A stretch of DNA of 64,000 bases. Origin: Actinomycetota bacterium (GTDB taxonomy: Bacteria; Actinomycetota; Actinomycetes; S36-B12; FW305-bin1). Below the pieces are notes generated by a model. That model did not search any database. It had not been told where the DNA came from and saw only the letters and a list, made by a program, of their open reading frames with translations. The stretch covers positions 79,440-143,439 of the forward strand of contig SCTR01000002.1 in assembly GCA_004297305.1 (NCBI GenBank). Reading direction: 5' to 3'. Both the position numbers and the translations under genes were made by a program. Shown here in pieces: positions 2,178-22,222 of the stretch; the stretch's first letter is position 1, and each line of letters begins with the position of its first letter.

Positions 2178-3254
2178 CTACTGGACGAGGCGGACGGCGG
2201 AAGCCGGTGTGCCGCAGACGATGGCGTCTTCGTGGGCGGCGCAGTATGCCGTCACGTCGGCGATTGCCAGGTAGCCGTCGGAATCGCCGGGCAACGTCGC
2301 TGCGGTCAGGCGTAAGGCAGGGCTGAAATCGGTGTCCATCGGGCCGGTCGGGAATGGGCCGCCGCAATGACCCGGAACCTCATTGCTGTTGCGCCCGGTA
2401 GTGGGACTGTCCTCCAGCTGCCAGCCGCAGAGCCGCACTGCCTGCAGTCCGGTGACGTTCAAGGGATTCGCGGGGGCGCCGTAGATGGGGAGCACGACAA
2501 TGCGCTGTGTCCGTACGAGCTCGTCGAGCGCGTCGCCGACGCTGTCAGGACCCGTGCCGGCGGCCGGCAGACCACGAGATTGCAGCCGGAGTGTCTGTCC
2601 GTCGAGTTCCATGATTGCGCTGAAACCGTTCGCGAGCCAGGAAGCGACCTCGGAATCGGTGATGGCGCCGGCGTCGACTGGTCCGACGACCAGGCCAGGG
2701 CATCCGGGTGCCTTGAGATCGAATCCCTCGGGCCCACCTCCGGGCACTCGCCGGCACAACGAGAAGGGCAGCATGCCTTCCACCACTTGTGGTGTCCCGA
2801 CTGCAGCGGTCGCCTGTCGGCCAACCGTGTAGTCATCAACGCCGAAGATCCCCCCGAATACGGCCGCCGTCGTACCGGTTCCGACGACCTGGACGGTCAT
2901 CGTCTCCCCGACGCACGCCGTCGTCACTGTTCGGTCCCAGGGACCAGTGCCGCCGTTGTCCGCATGGGTATCGAAGAAGCCTTCTGCTGCGGCGACGCCG
3001 GCGGCCTGAATGGCTGGTGGTGTGGTCGAGCAGGGTTGAGACGGGTCGCTGAGAGCGGCGATCCTGCTAGCCCCGGCCAGGGCGGCGGCGTCGACAGCGC
3101 TCTGCAGCGTCGATCGGGCGGTGTAGGCGAGACCGAAGTCGACGCTGAAAGCCACCAGCGGAACGAGGACGAACGTGACGAGGACGGCGACAAGGATCGC
3201 GACGGCACCGTCGTCGCGCTGCACGGCCGGCCAGCGGCCGAGCCGGGTCGTCAT
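2178..3254 (-). CDS. TadG-like (Tad/Flp pilus-assembly domain) secreted or membrane-anchored protein
   Basis: N-terminus MTTRLGRWPAVQRDDGAVAILVAVLVTFVLVPLVAFSVDFGLAY is typical of TadG/pilus-assembly N-terminal domains, followed by a Cys-rich domain. ATG 3254 overlaps the tadE-like stop (ATGA). Confidence 0.7.
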   Translation of the reverse strand: MTTRLGRWPAVQRDDGAVAILVAVLVTFVLVPLVAFSVDFGLAYTARSTLQSAVDAAALAGASRIAALSDPSQPCSTTPPAIQAAGVAAAEGFFDTHADNGGTGPWDRTVTTACVGETMTVQVVGTGTTAAVFGGIFGVDDYTVGRQATAAVGTPQVVEGMLPFSLCRRVPGGGPEGFDLKAPGCPGLVVGPVDAGAITDSEVASWLANGFSAIMELDGQTLRLQSRGLPAAGTGPDSVGDALDELVRTQRIVVLPIYGAPANPLNVTGLQAVRLCGWQLEDSPTTGRNSNEVPGHCGGPFPTGPMDTDFSPALRLTAATLPGDSDGYLAIADVTAYCAAHEDAIVCGTPASAVRLVQ

Positions 3255-15666: not shown

Positions 15667-16146
15667 TCAGCTGGCGGGCTGTTCGACGAGCTGAGCCAGG
15701 TAGAGCCCGAGCCCCAGGCGCTCGATCAGCTCGAGTTGGGTCTCCAGGTAGTCGATGTGGCCTTCCTCGGAGGCGAGGATCTCCTCGAAGATGCGTGCGC
15801 TGGTCACGTCGCCGACCGAACGCATGTACTCGATGCCGGTGCGGAGTCGTTCCACCGCATCGACTTCGACCGCCAGGTCGGCTCGCAACTGCTCGGGCAC
15901 GGTCTGGCCGATCCGTAGCGGATACAGCCGCTGGTAGTTCGGCAGGCCGTCCAGGTACAGGATGCGATCGGTGATCGTCTCCGCGTGCTTCATCTCGTCG
16001 ATGGACTCGTGCCGGGTGTGCTTGGCGAGCTTCACCAAACCCCAGTTCTCCTGCATCTTCGCGTGCAGGAAGTACTGATTGATGGCGGTCAACTCGCCGG
16101 ACAGCTGGTCGTTGAGAAGCTCGAGGACGCGCGGATCACCCTGCAT
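15667..16146 (-). CDS. bfr: Bacterioferritin
   Basis: MQGDPRVLELLNDQLSGELTAINQYFLHAKM..ESIDEMKHAE..EEGHIDYLETQL (ferroxidase ligands and heme Met). TAGAGT (plus-strand coordinates 16154-16159) ends 7 nt upstream of ATG 16146. Confidence 0.95.
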   Translation of the reverse strand: MQGDPRVLELLNDQLSGELTAINQYFLHAKMQENWGLVKLAKHTRHESIDEMKHAETITDRILYLDGLPNYQRLYPLRIGQTVPEQLRADLAVEVDAVERLRTGIEYMRSVGDVTSARIFEEILASEEGHIDYLETQLELIERLGLGLYLAQLVEQPAS

Positions 16147-16241
16147 GGACGGGACTCTAGCGCGCCGGCCCAGCCCGAACGAGTGGACGCGAGGAGCCGC
16201 TGTCCGGCCTCGCGCGGCTGGCTTTTCGATCGAATGTCCGC

Positions 16242-16454
16242 TCAGGCAGCCGAGGTCCGGTGCGGCCCGACGAGTCGCCCGCCGTCGTGCAGCTCGGTCA
16301 GCGCCGCCACCAACTCGCACACCCGTTCGGTACAGGCGCCGCACCCACTGGTCGCGTACGTCCGCTCCGCTACGGCCTCGACGGTTCGATGGCCCTCGCA
16401 GACGGCGGTATGCACGTCCTTGTCGGTGACGGCGTTGCAGAGGCACACGTACAT
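16242..16454 (-). CDS. bfd: Bacterioferritin-associated ferredoxin (BFD-like [2Fe-2S])
   Basis: 70-aa product MYVCLCNAVTDKDV...SGCGACTERV with the C-x-C...C-x2-C pattern. SD GGGAGG lies 6 nt upstream of ATG 16454. Confidence 0.85.
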   Translation of the reverse strand: MYVCLCNAVTDKDVHTAVCEGHRTVEAVAERTYATSGCGACTERVCELVAALTELHDGGRLVGPHRTSAA

Positions 16455-16503
16455 GCGCGACCTCCCGCTGCCCTCGACGCGCCCGCTCCCGGCAGGCTCG
16501 TCT

Positions 16504-16524
16504 CCAAGGTAAGGCAATCCTTGG
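16504..16524. promoter_or_regulatory. Candidate IdeR/DtxR-family iron box upstream of bfd
   Basis: The palindromic CCAAGGTAAGGCAATCCTTGG contains a 19-mer matching TWAGGTWAGSCTWACCTWA at 15/19 positions. It is centred about 60 nt upstream of the bfd ATG. Confidence 0.45.
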
Positions 16525-16615
16525 TCGGGCACAAGACGGGGCGCCTGCGGCCGGCGGGTCGGCGCCGCCGCAGTTGCGGGGCTGTGCCGTCGCTCGTGCG
16601 GCGTCTGCGCTGTCG

Positions 16616-17653
16616 CTACTGCCCCGTGGCCGGCTTGCGGCCCAGCAGCGGGGCGAACTGGCGTACGGCCTGGGCGAGCGCGCGCAGGTCGCTGTCGATC
16701 AACGCCTGCGGGCCGTCGCACCGAGCGCTCTCCGGATGGGGATGGACGTCGACGATGATCCCGTCGGCGCCGACCGCGATCGCCGCTCGCGACAGCGGCA
16801 CCACCAGATCGCGCCGGCCGCCCGAATGTGACGGGTCGACGACCACCGGCAGGTGCGACAGCCCGTGCGCGACGGCGACCGCGGCGATGTCCAGGGTGTT
16901 GCGGGTCGCGGTCTCGAAGGTCCGGATGCCGCGCTCGCACAACACGATGTCGAGATTGCCGCGCTGCGCGATGTACTCGGCGGCCATCAGCCATTCCTCG
17001 ATCGTCGCGCTCATCCCGCGCTTCAGCATGACCGGCTTGCCGGCATCGCCGACCGCCTGCAGCAGAGCGAAGTTCGCCATGTTGCGGGTCCCGACCTGCA
17101 GCATGTCGGCGTGGGCGGCCACGACCTCGACGTCGGCGGCGTCGACGACCTCGGTGACCACGGGAAGCCCGCTGCGGCGGCCGGCCTCGGCCAGGATCGT
17201 CAGGCCCTCACGGCCCAGACCCTGGAAGGCGTACGGCGACGTGCGCGGCTTGAACGCGCCGCCCCGCAGCAACGTCGCGCCGGCCGACTGTGCCATCTGC
17301 GCGGCCTGCCACGTCTGCTCGGGGGTCTCCACCGCGCAGGGTCCGGCGATCAGGGTGAAGGTGTCCGGTCCGATGGGGACCCGGTTGCCGGCCGGTCCGA
17401 CGTATACCGTCGACATGTCCGGGTGGTGGTCGCGCGAGACCAGCTTGTACGGCGTGGACACCCGGACGACCTCGGCCACACCGGCGAGTGCCCGCAGATC
17501 CACGCCGGACAGCCGGTCGGGATCCCCGACCAGTCCGACGATCGTGCGGGTCTCGCCGCGACTGACGAAGGCGTCGACGCCGGCCGCGCGCACGTGCGCG
17601 ACGACCGCCTCGACATCGTCCGCGGTGGCGTGCGGCGACATGACGACGACCAT
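16616..17653 (-). CDS. DAHP synthase, type Ibeta, with N-terminal ferredoxin-like/ACT-type regulatory domain
   Basis: KDO8P/DAHPS Ibeta motifs (IAGPCAVE, LLRGGAFKPRTSPYAFQG, MLKRG, VVDPSH). About 70 aa of N-terminal extension (MVVVMSPHATADDVEAVVAHVRAAG...). SD AGGAG lies 5 nt upstream of ATG 17653. Confidence 0.9.
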   Translation of the reverse strand: MVVVMSPHATADDVEAVVAHVRAAGVDAFVSRGETRTIVGLVGDPDRLSGVDLRALAGVAEVVRVSTPYKLVSRDHHPDMSTVYVGPAGNRVPIGPDTFTLIAGPCAVETPEQTWQAAQMAQSAGATLLRGGAFKPRTSPYAFQGLGREGLTILAEAGRRSGLPVVTEVVDAADVEVVAAHADMLQVGTRNMANFALLQAVGDAGKPVMLKRGMSATIEEWLMAAEYIAQRGNLDIVLCERGIRTFETATRNTLDIAAVAVAHGLSHLPVVVDPSHSGGRRDLVVPLSRAAIAVGADGIIVDVHPHPESARCDGPQALIDSDLRALAQAVRQFAPLLGRKPATGQ

Positions 17654-17700
17654 GACTACTCCTGGACGGTCGGTCCGGGTCGACCGGTCCGGGCATGGCG

Positions 17701-17729
17701 CGAGCCCCGGCCGATCGGCTCGGGGCTCG
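17701..17729 (-). terminator. Very stable GC hairpin (9-bp outer stem, A bulge, 3-bp inner stem, GAUC loop) between the leader ORF and the DAHP synthase; candidate attenuator terminator and/or kinase-gene terminator
   Basis: RNA CGAGCCCCG-A-GCC-GAUC-GGC-CGGGGCUCG. No U-tract. Lies 47 nt upstream of the DAHPS ATG. Confidence 0.5.
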
Positions 17730-17750
17730 TGGTGGGGGCGGGGTGCCGGG

Positions 17751-17828
17751 TCAGGCGTGGACTACCCGGCGGCCCGCCCGGACGGTCCCGGGCGCGTCAC
17801 CATAGGTAAACCACCACGACGCGTGCAC
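17751..17828 (-). CDS. Candidate leaderless leader peptide VHASWWFTYGDAPGTVRAGRRVVHA (aromatic-codon run)
   Basis: GTG 17828 to TGA 17751. Codons 5-9 are UGG UGG UUU ACC UAU. TACGCT (plus-strand coordinates 17835-17840) ends 6 nt before the GTG, with TCGACG 18 nt further upstream. Alternative pairings with downstream segments exist (see findings). Confidence 0.4.
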   Translation of the reverse strand: MHASWWFTYGDAPGTVRAGRRVVHA

Positions 17829-17926
17829 GCGCGCAGCGTACGACGCCGACCCGCGAGGCGTCGACCCGGCCGGCGCCCGGTGTCGTCAGGCGCGGTCACC
17901 GCGCCCGGGCGGGGAGCCGACGGCGG

Positions 17927-19864
<1,938 letters not shown>

Positions 19865-19935: not shown

Positions 19936-20943
<1,008 letters not shown>

Positions 20944-20947
<4 letters not shown>

Positions 20948-22101
20948 GCCCGTACTCCTGCGGGGGTGAAGCGCAACGGATCGGTGGCCGCCGCGTCGTC
21001 CGGCAAGGTCCCGTCGAGGATCCAGCCGGCCACGGCGTCGGCGGTGGTGGGGGACTGCAGGATCCCGTTGCGGCCGTGCCCGGTCGCCAGGACCAGACCC
21101 GGACCGGCCGGGCCGACGAGCGGCACGTGGTCGGGGGTGACCGGACGCAGTCCCGCGCGCGCCTCGACCAGCTGCAGTTCGCCGACGACCGGCAGCACCG
21201 CCCGGGCGTCCCGCAGCAGCTGAAAGACCCCGCCGGCGGACACCGTCACGTCCTGGCCCCGCTCGTCGGTCGTCGCGCCGACGACGACCTCGCCGTCGGC
21301 TCGGGGGACCAGGTACACCGGGTAGCCGTGGACCAGGGCCCGCAGGGTGTGCGTCAGTACCGGCCCGCTGCTGCCGGTGGTCGCCAGTCGCAGGATCTCG
21401 CCGCGGACGGCGCGGACGGGCACGACGACGTCGCGGAGTCCCGGCAGCCCGGCTGCCGCGACGCCGGTGGCCACCACCGTGGTGTCGGCGTACAGCTCCG
21501 CTCCAGTCACCAGCCGTACTCCGGTCACGCCCCGCGGCGAGGACAGCACGGTCTCGACCGCCGCCGGCTGCCATCGCACCCCCGCGTCGCGGGCCGCCCG
21601 CTGCAAGGCGGCCAGCAGCAGCCGGTTGTGCACGGAGGTGTCGTGCTGCACGAGCAGGGCCGCGCTGATGCCCGGGGCCACCAACGGCTCCAGCGTCCGG
21701 GCTTCGCGGGTGGTCAGCGACTGGCTGGGGAGGCGGTAGCGGTCGTGCAGTTGCCGTACCCGTCCGAGTTCGGCGCGGTCGTCGTCGTCGACGGCGACGA
21801 CGAGCGTGCCGTCGGTGCGGTAGCCGACCGGCAGGCCGCTGGCCGCTTCGACCGCGGGCGCCCAGCTGGCCCAGCGGGCCGCGGACCGAACGGCCAGGTC
21901 CAGGCCTCGCTCGTCACCGATGTGGTGCTCGGTGACCGCGGCCAGCATCCCGGCACCGACGTACGAGGTGCCCTGGCCCGGCGCGGGATCCACCACGGTG
22001 ACTTCCGCGCCGCCGCGGGCCAGCAGCCAGGCGCACGACAGGCCGATCACACCGCCGCCGACGACCAGGACGTCGGCGGATCCGGCGTCGTCGCGGAACA
22101 C
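20944..22101 (-). CDS. thiO: Glycine oxidase ThiO
   Basis: FAD motif DVLVVGGGVIGLSCA and a C-terminal HGRNGIL. GTG 22101 is preceded by GGGAG, which lies in the 3' end of the TPP riboswitch. Confidence 0.88.
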
Positions 22102-22192
22102 GACGCTCCCTTCGCCGGCATGACCCGGATCAGGTTCGACGGTCAGGGGCGCCAGCCCCTCTCTCAGCCCACTCGGGTGGGCTCCCGTGGTC
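22102..22192 (-). promoter_or_regulatory. TPP (THI-box) riboswitch controlling thiO-thiS-thiG
   Basis: The minus-strand RNA ACGGGAGCCCACCCGAGUGGGCUGAGAGAGGGGCUGGCGCCCCUGACCGUCGAACCUGAUCCGGGUCAUGCCGGCGAAGGGAGCG contains the conserved CUGAGA and ACCUGAUCNGGNUNAUGCCNGCGNAGGGA cores. Confidence 0.85.
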
Positions 22193-22222
22193 GCATCAGG
22201 GTACGCCGGGCAGGATGACCGG

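Follow-up and report, generated by a model that had tools for sequence, protein, structure and literature searches.

A conserved aromatic-codon leader with leaderless geometry upstream of type Ibeta DAHP synthase genes in actinobacteria: a probable transcription attenuator

The leader and the gene downstream

[quoted passage not shown] We analyzed the region upstream of a DAHP synthase gene in a 64-kb stretch of contig SCTR01000002.1 from an Actinomycetota bacterium (hereafter the window). There, an earlier note made from the DNA alone had pointed to a short leader peptide with consecutive aromatic codons, followed by alternative RNA stems, as a candidate attenuator. All coordinates of the element are read on the minus strand of the window, and leader nucleotide n corresponds to coordinate 17829 - n. 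The locus comprises the following features:

16616..17653, minus strand: type Ibeta DAHP synthase gene (PF00793 and PF18152), the proposed regulated gene
17659..17663, minus strand: Shine-Dalgarno (SD) sequence AGGAG of the DAHP synthase gene, read from the sequence
17702..17728, minus strand: terminator-type GC hairpin GAGCCCCG(A)GCC-GAUC-GGCCGGGGCUC, leader nt 101 to 127
17751..17828, minus strand: leader open reading frame (ORF) of 25 codons, from GTG at 17828 to TGA at 17751
17802..17816, minus strand: putative regulatory codons 5 to 9, UGG UGG UUU ACC UAU (Trp Trp Phe Thr Tyr), read from the sequence
17835..17840, minus strand: -10 box TACGCT, 6 nt before the leader GTG
17859..17864, minus strand: TCGACG, 18 nt upstream of TACGCT, formerly a -35 candidate and probably not significant

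The product of the downstream gene matched PF00793 (E = 2e-77) and the ferredoxin-like N-domain PF18152 (E = 1e-19). We assigned it to type Ibeta, as had been proposed, because the protein combines PF00793 with this ferredoxin-like N-terminal regulatory domain. The leader is co-oriented with the FXD-domain gene and lies directly 5' of it, with 97 nt between the leader stop codon and the ATG at 17653 (family range, 63 to 148 nt). The stable hairpin that had been noted ahead of the DAHP synthase SD sequence and ATG has a calculated free energy of -24.7 kcal/mol, and the ATG, preceded by AGGAG, lies 48 nt beyond it. Just past the hairpin (17654-17701, minus strand), GCGCCAUG pairs with the start region CAUGGUC of the gene in the minimum-energy fold, a modeled interaction that may weakly occlude the DAHP synthase start codon. 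The gene upstream of the leader encodes a PASTA Ser/Thr kinase, whose stop codon is at 17927. Approximately 20 nt past that stop codon and 5' of the leader promoter is a perfect 7-bp GC hairpin, GGCGCGG-UGA-CCGCGCC (approximately 17889-17905, minus strand), which has no U-tract and may serve the kinase gene itself as a terminator or insulator.

For comparison, we scanned one genome per species and obtained 80 orthologous DAHP synthase loci with 70 to 82% identity. Unless otherwise stated, family statistics refer to 51 leaders, namely, 50 relatives found by a pattern search together with the window. The minus-strand sequence bore out every sequence detail of the earlier note, including the ORF with its five-codon run, and the predicted peptide is VHASWWFTYGDAPGTVRAGRRVVHA (V/M-HASWWFTYGDAPGTVRAGRRVVHA). 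The leader peptides had no match among Pfam or NCBIfam models, and only one of seven was present, unnamed, in a collection of 15 billion proteins. To judge whether such an ORF could arise by chance, we searched both strands of the 64 kb for a TANNNT box followed after 6 to 8 nt by a start codon and a 12- to 40-codon ORF with at least three aromatic residues in five. The sole match was the leader locus, and dinucleotide shuffles contained 0.05 matches on average. The leader ORF is not a chance ORF.

The absence of an SD sequence and the geometry of a leaderless mRNA, both part of the original description, proved to be features of the family. A TANNNT box is located 6 to 9 nt before the leader start codon in 48 of 51 members (6 nt in 17, 7 nt in 25, 8 nt in 5, and 9 nt in 1), and an SD-like motif precedes 2/51 leaders versus 48/51 of the DAHP synthase genes. 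Given the placement of TACGCT, transcription is predicted to start at or adjoining the leader GTG, yielding a leaderless mRNA. The same start geometry has been described for leaderless leader peptides of Streptomyces (PMC8079986) and leaderless small ORFs (sORFs) of mycobacteria (PMC4633059; bioRxiv 10.1101/834739). Relatives keep an extended TGnGnTAnnnT form of the -10 box, of which the window lacks the TGnGn extension. TCGACG is present where it had been placed, 18 nt upstream of the -10 box, but we rejected a conserved -35 hexamer, as NNGACN at a spacing of 16 to 19 nt from the -10 box occurs in only 7/48 relatives. A simple scan for sigma-70 promoters and U-tract terminators found nothing at the leader locus, as expected for actinobacterial promoters.

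Distribution and sensor codons of the leader family

The DAHP synthase proteins that best matched that of the window, at 81 to 82% identity, came from an Actinomycetes metagenome-assembled genome (MAG) and Longivirga aurantiaca. If the aromatic run had been missing upstream of orthologous type Ibeta genes, the attenuator idea as first put forward would have been refuted. Instead, we found a leader ORF with such a run 5' of the DAHP synthase gene in 50 relatives by pattern search and in 4 more by a covariance model, so that homologous leaders occupy 54 of the 80 orthologous loci. With this model (R1), the family has at least 55 members in all. The taxonomic span covers Streptosporangiales, Nocardioidaceae, MAGs of Frankiales and Motilibacteraceae, Longivirga, Trebonia, and a Nanopelagicales MAG. 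Hosts include Nonomuraea, Streptosporangium, Microbispora, Herbidospora, Planotetraspora, Sphaerisporangium, Actinomadura, Spirillospora, Actinoallomurus, Nocardiopsis, Nocardioides, and Marmoricola. Examples of the peptides in relatives, each given up to its stop codon, are MRTAFWFWYGDGPVRTVRHQVLR, MRQQFWFWFGYRPGSRTVARQTLR, MASTYFFGHLPGAPVRAVPM, and VRTRWYGFPDRDSRPGAC.

We built R1 (alignment A4) from the 50 relatives alone, leaving the window out. Searched against the window, it matched 17693-17828 on the minus strand over model positions 1 to 131 of 131 (44.0 bits, E = 7.7e-10), the sole such match in 64 kb. The other matches were the hairpin palindrome on the opposite strand (E = 0.033) and noise (E = 2.2). 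The model also recovered the four relatives that the pattern search had missed (loci L007, L020, L057, and L067). These results bear on the idea that a chance ORF and chance hairpins lie in GC-rich intergenic DNA and that the hairpin merely terminates the upstream kinase gene. GC-rich DNA does yield long stop-free frames and many stable stems, and the z-score for the fold of the whole leader is only -2.0. However, 54 genomes of several orders have kept the ORF together with its -10 spacing, its aromatic run, and the hairpin, which effectively refutes a chance ORF. In addition, the pattern occurs once in the window against 0.05 expected, and the kinase stop codon already has a separate hairpin of its own. 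We consider this explanation almost certainly wrong.

The remaining 26 of 80 relatives lack the leader, having lost it or never had it. At most of these loci another gene, either a kinase or an upstream ORF common to several of them, ends 10 to 80 nt before the DAHP synthase start (examples are L006, L008, L013, L015, L021, L025, L041, L019, L026, L047, L049, L060, L061, and L076). In one group a PASTA kinase gene ends 10 to 70 nt before the start. In another, with different synteny, an ORF whose product ends in VPHIAV or VxHLxV stops 11 to 83 nt upstream. Because several Nocardioides species differ in having the leader, its gain or loss is recent.

Some relatives carry repeats between the leader terminator and the DAHP synthase start. 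In two Trebonia-like loci (L053:2911-3000 and L046:2912-3000), this interval holds two to four tandem copies of an approximately 17- to 20-nt unit, which reads GAGCACACGCTTTTCAT, GAGCACATGTTTTTCCT, and GAGCACGCGCTTGTCCT in L053 and GGGCAGTCACGGTTTCGCC twice in L046. The tandem units may be an extra operator array or the product of repeat expansion. Short U-rich direct repeats follow the leader terminator in L055 (approximately 2946-3000, three copies of TTTTCCAGCGG) and in L035 (approximately 2909-3000, GATTTCC-like units), where they extend the 5' untranslated region to 60 to 100 nt.

Codon usage provides a second line of evidence. Aromatic codons make up 18.9% of leader codons versus 3.5% in the adjacent DAHP synthase genes, and leaders of the family typically contain a run of three to five Phe, Trp, or Tyr codons. 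The suggestion that a single peptide integrates all three end products fits most members, as Phe, Trp, and Tyr occur together within seven codons in 38/51 leaders. This mixed composition is that of the Streptosporangiales leaders. Eleven leaders, mainly of the Nocardioides type, have Phe and Tyr only, and two have Phe and Trp. The choice among synonymous codons is also skewed. UUU accounts for 53/96 Phe codons (55%) in leaders versus 4/312 (1.3%) in DAHP synthase genes (Fisher P = 6e-35), and UAU accounts for 42/66 Tyr codons (64%) versus 4/232 (1.7%; P = 2e-29). By odds ratio, both codons are enriched approximately 95-fold relative to the adjacent gene in genomes of approximately 70% GC. Such a bias toward rare UUU and UAU would be expected of codons selected as slow and sensitive to tRNA charging, and it would be hard to explain in an untranslated RNA. 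The rare CUA codons of the Escherichia coli leu leader are a parallel.

Alternative RNA folds and the proposed switch

The terminator-type hairpin is present in all 51 leaders. In the window it is an 11-bp stem, GAGCCCCGAGCC-GAUC-GGCCGGGGCUC, with the energy given above including its closing C-G pair. The family core, GCCCCGGG...CCCGGGGC, lies 8 to 30 nt past the leader stop codon in every member, and RNAalifold detected compensatory changes at three of its stem pairs. The stems of relatives have an A-rich flank on the 5' side and a U-rich flank on the 3' side. In the 12 nt past the 8-bp core, their tails contain 5 U at the median and never fewer than 3 U, and 30 of 50 include UUU. The lack of a U-tract reported for the window is real but specific to it, as most relatives have one.

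Upstream of this hairpin, the leader can adopt alternative structures built from the following segments:

17757..17814, minus strand: ORF hairpin H1, putative anti-antiterminator (the "1:2" element), leader nt 15 to 72, -35.5 kcal/mol
17782..17796, minus strand: region 2, 5' strand of the outer antiterminator helix, codons D-A-P-G-T-V, leader nt 33 to 47, from ribosome-masked truncated folds
17716..17730, minus strand: 3' strand of the outer antiterminator helix, leader nt 99 to 113, covering the whole terminator 5' arm
17765..17779, minus strand: 5' strand of the inner antiterminator helix, GGGCGGGCCGCCGGG, codons R-A-G-R-R, leader nt 50 to 64
17736..17750, minus strand: 3' strand of the inner antiterminator helix, CCCGGCACCCCGCCC, just past the stop codon, leader nt 79 to 93, pairing with GGGCGGGCCGCCGGG at 13/15 positions
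17727..17735, minus strand: CCACCACGA, perfectly complementary over 9 bp to the Trp-codon segment UCGUGGUGG (17819-17811), lineage specific or incidental

H1 pairs the aromatic codons and those that follow with the 3' half of the ORF. It includes the codons W6-F-T-Y and has the apex CGCCCGGG-ACCG-UCCGGGCG. In 50/51 leaders of the family, the ORF fold is more stable than its own shuffles (median z = -1.67). Pairing reaches 86% over the three codons that follow the aromatic run, and a CCCGG...CCGGG palindrome forms the apex. Both antiterminator strands share their nucleotides with H1, of which region 2 alternatively forms part, and H1 is thus predicted in silico to act as an anti-antiterminator. 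In the same folds, a ribosome stalled on the sensor codons would be able to disrupt this pairing.

The antiterminator consists of two stacked helices. A 13/15 stem with the leader stop codon in its loop, already recognized in the earlier note, turned out to be the inner helix of this conserved structure, whose duplex in the window (-31.2 kcal/mol) is the strongest in the family. This pairing of the ORF 3' part with the post-stop spacer beat shuffles in 48/51 leaders (median z = -1.56), and the leaders' own pairings beat permuted sets in all 10,000 permutations. The main antiterminator strand, in which the D-A-P-G-T-V segment pairs with the terminator 5' arm, was missing from the original set of stems; even so, the general claim of alternative RNA stems is upheld by the conserved two-helix structure. 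In the window, the antiterminator (nt 33 to 113) folds at -43.0 kcal/mol and is mutually exclusive with the terminator.

The outer helix recurs in relatives with clade-specific sequences. In approximately 40/51 leaders, (R/G/L)-P-G codons located 4 to 9 nt past the last aromatic codon resemble the 3' arm of the terminator and pair with the 5' arm. GGACCCG pairs with CGGGUCC in the "GDGP" clade, GGCCCGG pairs with CCGGGCC in the "YRPG" clade, and GCCGGGG pairs with CCCCUGGC in Nocardioides-type leaders. When applied to the segment from the end of the aromatic run to the terminator loop, RNAalifold returned the outer helix, with GC in 19 and AU in 11 sequences at one pair. Checking covariation in relatives had been one of the steps proposed at the outset, and it yielded two covarying pairs in this helix (GC/AU and GC/CG) besides the three in the terminator stem. 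In the aligned columns, 91.5% of cells are paired, and a one-column shift of the partner lowers this value to 60% and 53%. At 0.238, the covariation score exceeds that of shuffles (0.132 ± 0.014), with 0/500 shuffles reaching it. Permuted pairings were less stable than the duplexes of leaders with their own terminator arms in each of 10,000 permutations; against per-sequence shuffles, the signal was weak (median z = -0.95). RNAalifold returned only the terminator from the whole 51-sequence alignment and no consensus from an ORF-only alignment, the latter because the pairing register shifts between clades.

We rejected one further stem as a family feature. The exact 9-bp complementarity between the Trp-codon segment and CCACCACGA exists in the window as described, and 14/2,000 shuffles reach that length. 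However, it has no family-wide signal (median z = +0.49; permutation P = 0.35).

We then placed a 28-nt ribosome mask on RNA that was truncated before the terminator 3' arm. With the mask on W5, W6, or F7, the antiterminator was the minimum-energy fold and the terminator 5' arm was sequestered. With masks beyond Y9, the outer helix was gone, and the terminator 5' arm was released once the A-site had passed the run. We used truncated folds because equilibrium folds of the full leader are uninformative, as described below.

Taken together, these features suggest that the element is a ribosome-mediated transcription attenuator of the type Ibeta DAHP synthase gene, a reading to which we assign a probability of approximately 0.7 for this copy. 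For the leader family as a whole, the same reading is highly probable. Transcription would begin at or next to the leader GTG, a 70S ribosome would load on the 5' end of the leaderless mRNA, and the 25-codon leader would be translated while RNA polymerase proceeds. With an ample supply of charged Trp-, Phe-, and Tyr-tRNAs, the ribosome would reach the UGA, where it would cover the inner antiterminator helix on its post-stop strand. The ORF would refold into H1 behind the terminating ribosome, sequestering region 2. The GC hairpin at 17728-17702 could then form, and transcription would be stopped or strongly reduced before the DAHP synthase gene. When an aromatic aminoacyl-tRNA is scarce, the ribosome would stall on UGG UGG UUU (ACC) UAU. 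Its hold on the 5' strand of H1 would leave the 3' half of the ORF free to pair with the post-stop spacer as the inner helix, and the D-A-P-G-T-V segment would pair with the terminator 5' arm as the outer helix. The terminator would not form, and polymerase would read into the DAHP synthase gene. By geometry, stalls at the two Trp codons and the Phe codon would leave region 2 free. A Tyr stall is predicted to be less effective than Trp or Phe stalls because it half-covers region 2.

Several observations weigh against this mechanism, some of them specific to the window. The hairpin tail there, CUCGCGCCAUGC, has 2 U in 12 nt, the lowest of the 51 copies, which makes canonical intrinsic termination doubtful in this organism. 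The outer antiterminator helix of the window is interrupted, with 13 bp and three bulges or mismatches. Its leader pairs worse with its own terminator arm than with the arms of other species (-10.6 versus -15.8 kcal/mol); the 5' arm of the window, CCCCGAG with a bulged A, pairs with the leader less well than does the consensus arm. Other points concern the family or the models. Covariation stems from a few clade-level events and not from many independent ones. Per-sequence duplex z-scores are modest (median of about -1 to -1.6) because every segment is GC rich, and hence we relied on permutation across species and on counts over alignment columns. At equilibrium, folds of the full leader always favor the terminator, which is approximately 100% formed whatever the mask. 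Finally, the thermodynamic model predicts antiterminator pairing also with a ribosome at the stop codon, so that discrimination between that state and the stalled one would rest on kinetics and sterics.

The weakness of the U-tract is softened by its genomic context. In window positions 1-60000, both strands together, we found 6 canonical hairpin-plus-U-tract terminators versus approximately 10 expected from shuffled sequence. Such terminators are not enriched window-wide, which makes the missing U-tract a property of the genome rather than of this site, and this organism seems not to rely on U-tract terminators. We nevertheless hold attenuation by termination at the U-less hairpin with lower confidence for this copy than we hold the family to be an attenuator. 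The switch might operate as described and have a different output here, such as factor-assisted termination (NusG/NusA stimulated or Rho dependent), a pause, or an RNA-stability element. A Rho-dependent variant might use the C-rich, G-poor spacer CCCGGCACCCCGCCCCCACCAC between the leader stop codon and the hairpin. Consistent with a noncanonical output are the poorest U-tract of 51 copies, the lack of terminator enrichment, the C-rich spacer, and a record of Streptomyces lividans leader peptides without U-rich terminators (PMC8079986). On the other hand, most relatives keep an ordinary U-tract right after the homologous hairpin, from which the ancestral output would be intrinsic termination. 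A simple Rho-polarity model has the wrong sign, since stalling would lower DAHP synthase expression, and the C-rich stretch is only approximately 25 nt long. We therefore regard a noncanonical output as unlikely, though worth keeping in view.

Some of the same observations could mean that the window copy is a decaying relic, in which the U-tract, the extended -10 box, and part of the antiterminator have eroded and the DAHP synthase gene is constitutively read through. The window is an outlier in U content and in pairing with its own terminator arm, its -10 box lacks TGnGn, and 26/80 relatives have lost the leader or never had it. Against decay, the frame and stop-codon position of the ORF are intact, as are the strong inner helix, the 11-bp hairpin, and the aromatic run, in which four of five codons are aromatic, the rare UUU and UAU among them. 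R1 still scores 44 bits over the full element. Moreover, U-tracts are weak as well in L002, L003, and L004, the closest relatives, at 3 to 5 U in 12 nt, suggesting lineage-wide GC drift rather than decay of a single copy. A relic is, in our judgment, quite improbable.

The peptides themselves invite another explanation. Despite differences in codons, a Gly right after the aromatic run and a Pro(-Gly) 2 to 4 residues later are nearly invariant among the 51 peptides. The aromatic run followed by G-x-x-P-G could constitute a TnaC-like nascent-chain arrest sequence that senses free aromatic amino acids. However, the Gly and Pro-Gly codons are base-paired in H1 and the antiterminator, and Pro is encoded by CCC in 51/72 cases in leaders versus 281/1,039 in DAHP synthase genes, where CCG is preferred (708/1,039). 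Because these codons are both paired and biased toward CCC, RNA-level pairing through CCCGG is enough to explain the conservation. In addition, sensing of free amino acids would induce DAHP synthase under abundance, the wrong sign for a biosynthetic gene. We find an arrest peptide very hard to credit. A combined codon-plus-peptide sensor, with Gly and Pro-Gly as a nascent-chain element that modulates ribosome pausing, seems improbable as well, if slightly less so. Slow Pro/Gly peptide-bond formation could prolong occupancy near the aromatic codons, or the chain could be sensed in the exit tunnel. In lineages without a U-tract, such a switch could feed noncanonical, factor-dependent termination.

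Other features of the window lie apart from the leader. Downstream of the DAHP synthase gene on the same strand are a Bfd-like [2Fe-2S] ORF (PF04324) and a ferritin-like ORF (PF00210), probably a bacterioferritin, at 15667-16446 and 16242-16994 (minus strand). These are mechanically called ORFs with overextended 5' ends, and they overlap. A thiamine pyrophosphate riboswitch (RF00059; 65.7 bits, E = 1e-10) at 22089-22198 (minus strand) lies 5' of thiamine genes that include ThiG (PF05690) at 19936-20745 (minus strand).

Significance and relation to known attenuators

Control of actinomycete DAHP synthases has been discussed almost wholly as allosteric feedback, for example in the engineering of Nonomuraea for glycopeptide production (PMC13543061). 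A conserved attenuator would add a transcriptional layer that reads the tRNA charging of two or three end products together. The leader is present in producers of aromatic-derived antibiotics (Nonomuraea, Actinomadura, Streptosporangium, and Microbispora), where deleting or recoding it could be a simple engineering handle. It also offers a clear case of rare-codon enrichment in sensor codons. Members with and without a U-tract form a natural series bearing on the termination needs of high-GC actinobacterial RNA polymerases. For annotation, the gain is a well-populated leader family that is missing from Rfam, Pfam, and NCBIfam. Rfam models gave no match at the leader in 16500-19000 even at E ≤ 10, and none at the leader in the window or in 12 relatives at the gathering score. 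We found no description of this leader family in the literature, in a search that did not reach subscription-only comparative papers.

The aroF product of Corynebacterium glutamicum is a different class I enzyme without an FXD domain. The precedent invoked in the earlier note is genuine and is the closest functional one: in published summaries of the work of Neshat et al. (2014), a leader with Phe-Tyr-Phe codons, aroR, lies 5' of this DAHP synthase gene, and attenuation is relieved by Phe limitation (PMC11802643, PMC4046766, and PMC7356990). Like aroR, the present leader is a short actinobacterial ORF with consecutive aromatic codons directly 5' of a DAHP synthase gene. Unlike aroR, the run here mixes Trp, Phe, and Tyr (WWFTY in the window), and the family spans several noncorynebacterial orders. 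The likeness is one of description rather than of sequence alignment, and the enzyme here is the FXD-domain type Ibeta.

Like the trpL and pheL leaders of E. coli (Rfam Trp_leader and Phe_leader), the element has four segments, with a 1:2 hairpin, a 2:3 antiterminator, and a 3:4 terminator. Its regulatory codons lie in or beside segment 1, and its stop codon lies near segments 2 and 3. It differs in being leaderless rather than SD led, in its stacked two-helix antiterminator with the stop codon in the inner-helix loop, in its control of the entry enzyme of the common pathway rather than a terminal branch, and in the lack of a U-tract in the window copy.

Closer in host and geometry are the leaderless attenuators of Streptomyces, namely, trpL1 (MFAHSTRNWWWTAHPAAH) 5' of trpE, together with leuL and ilvL (PMC8079986). 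These share a high-GC actinomycete host, an ORF at the transcript 5' end, a codon run followed by hairpins, and sometimes the lack of a U-rich tract. In contrast, the run of trpL1 is Trp only, the gene downstream here encodes DAHP synthase and not trpE, and the S. lividans study lists no aro or DAHP synthase leader (PMC8079986). In Acholeplasma, the uORFC-13-1 motif 5' of aroF is a predicted upstream ORF (uORF) with Phe codons immediately before an intrinsic terminator (PMC8632094). The likeness lies in the combination of a predicted Phe-codon uORF, a terminator, and a DAHP synthase gene; that motif differs in occurring in AT-rich Mollicutes, in being SD led, in having a U-run that codes for Phe only, and in its unrelated sequence.

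Among mycobacteria, attenuation by an "LVVI" uORF of ilvB1 was recently demonstrated in Mycobacterium tuberculosis (PMC13236596), and leaderless polycysteine sORFs sense amino acid supply (bioRxiv 10.1101/834739). These too are short actinobacterial ORFs, often leaderless, in which translation senses an amino acid and controls biosynthetic genes, and the reasoning from ribosome footprints carries over to them. The amino acids that they sense are different, however, and the Cys sORFs act mainly on translation and operon polarity rather than through a terminator hairpin. What is new here is a widely conserved leader family for which Rfam, Pfam, and NCBIfam hold no model; the kind of regulator, classical attenuation, is well known and not a new mechanism.

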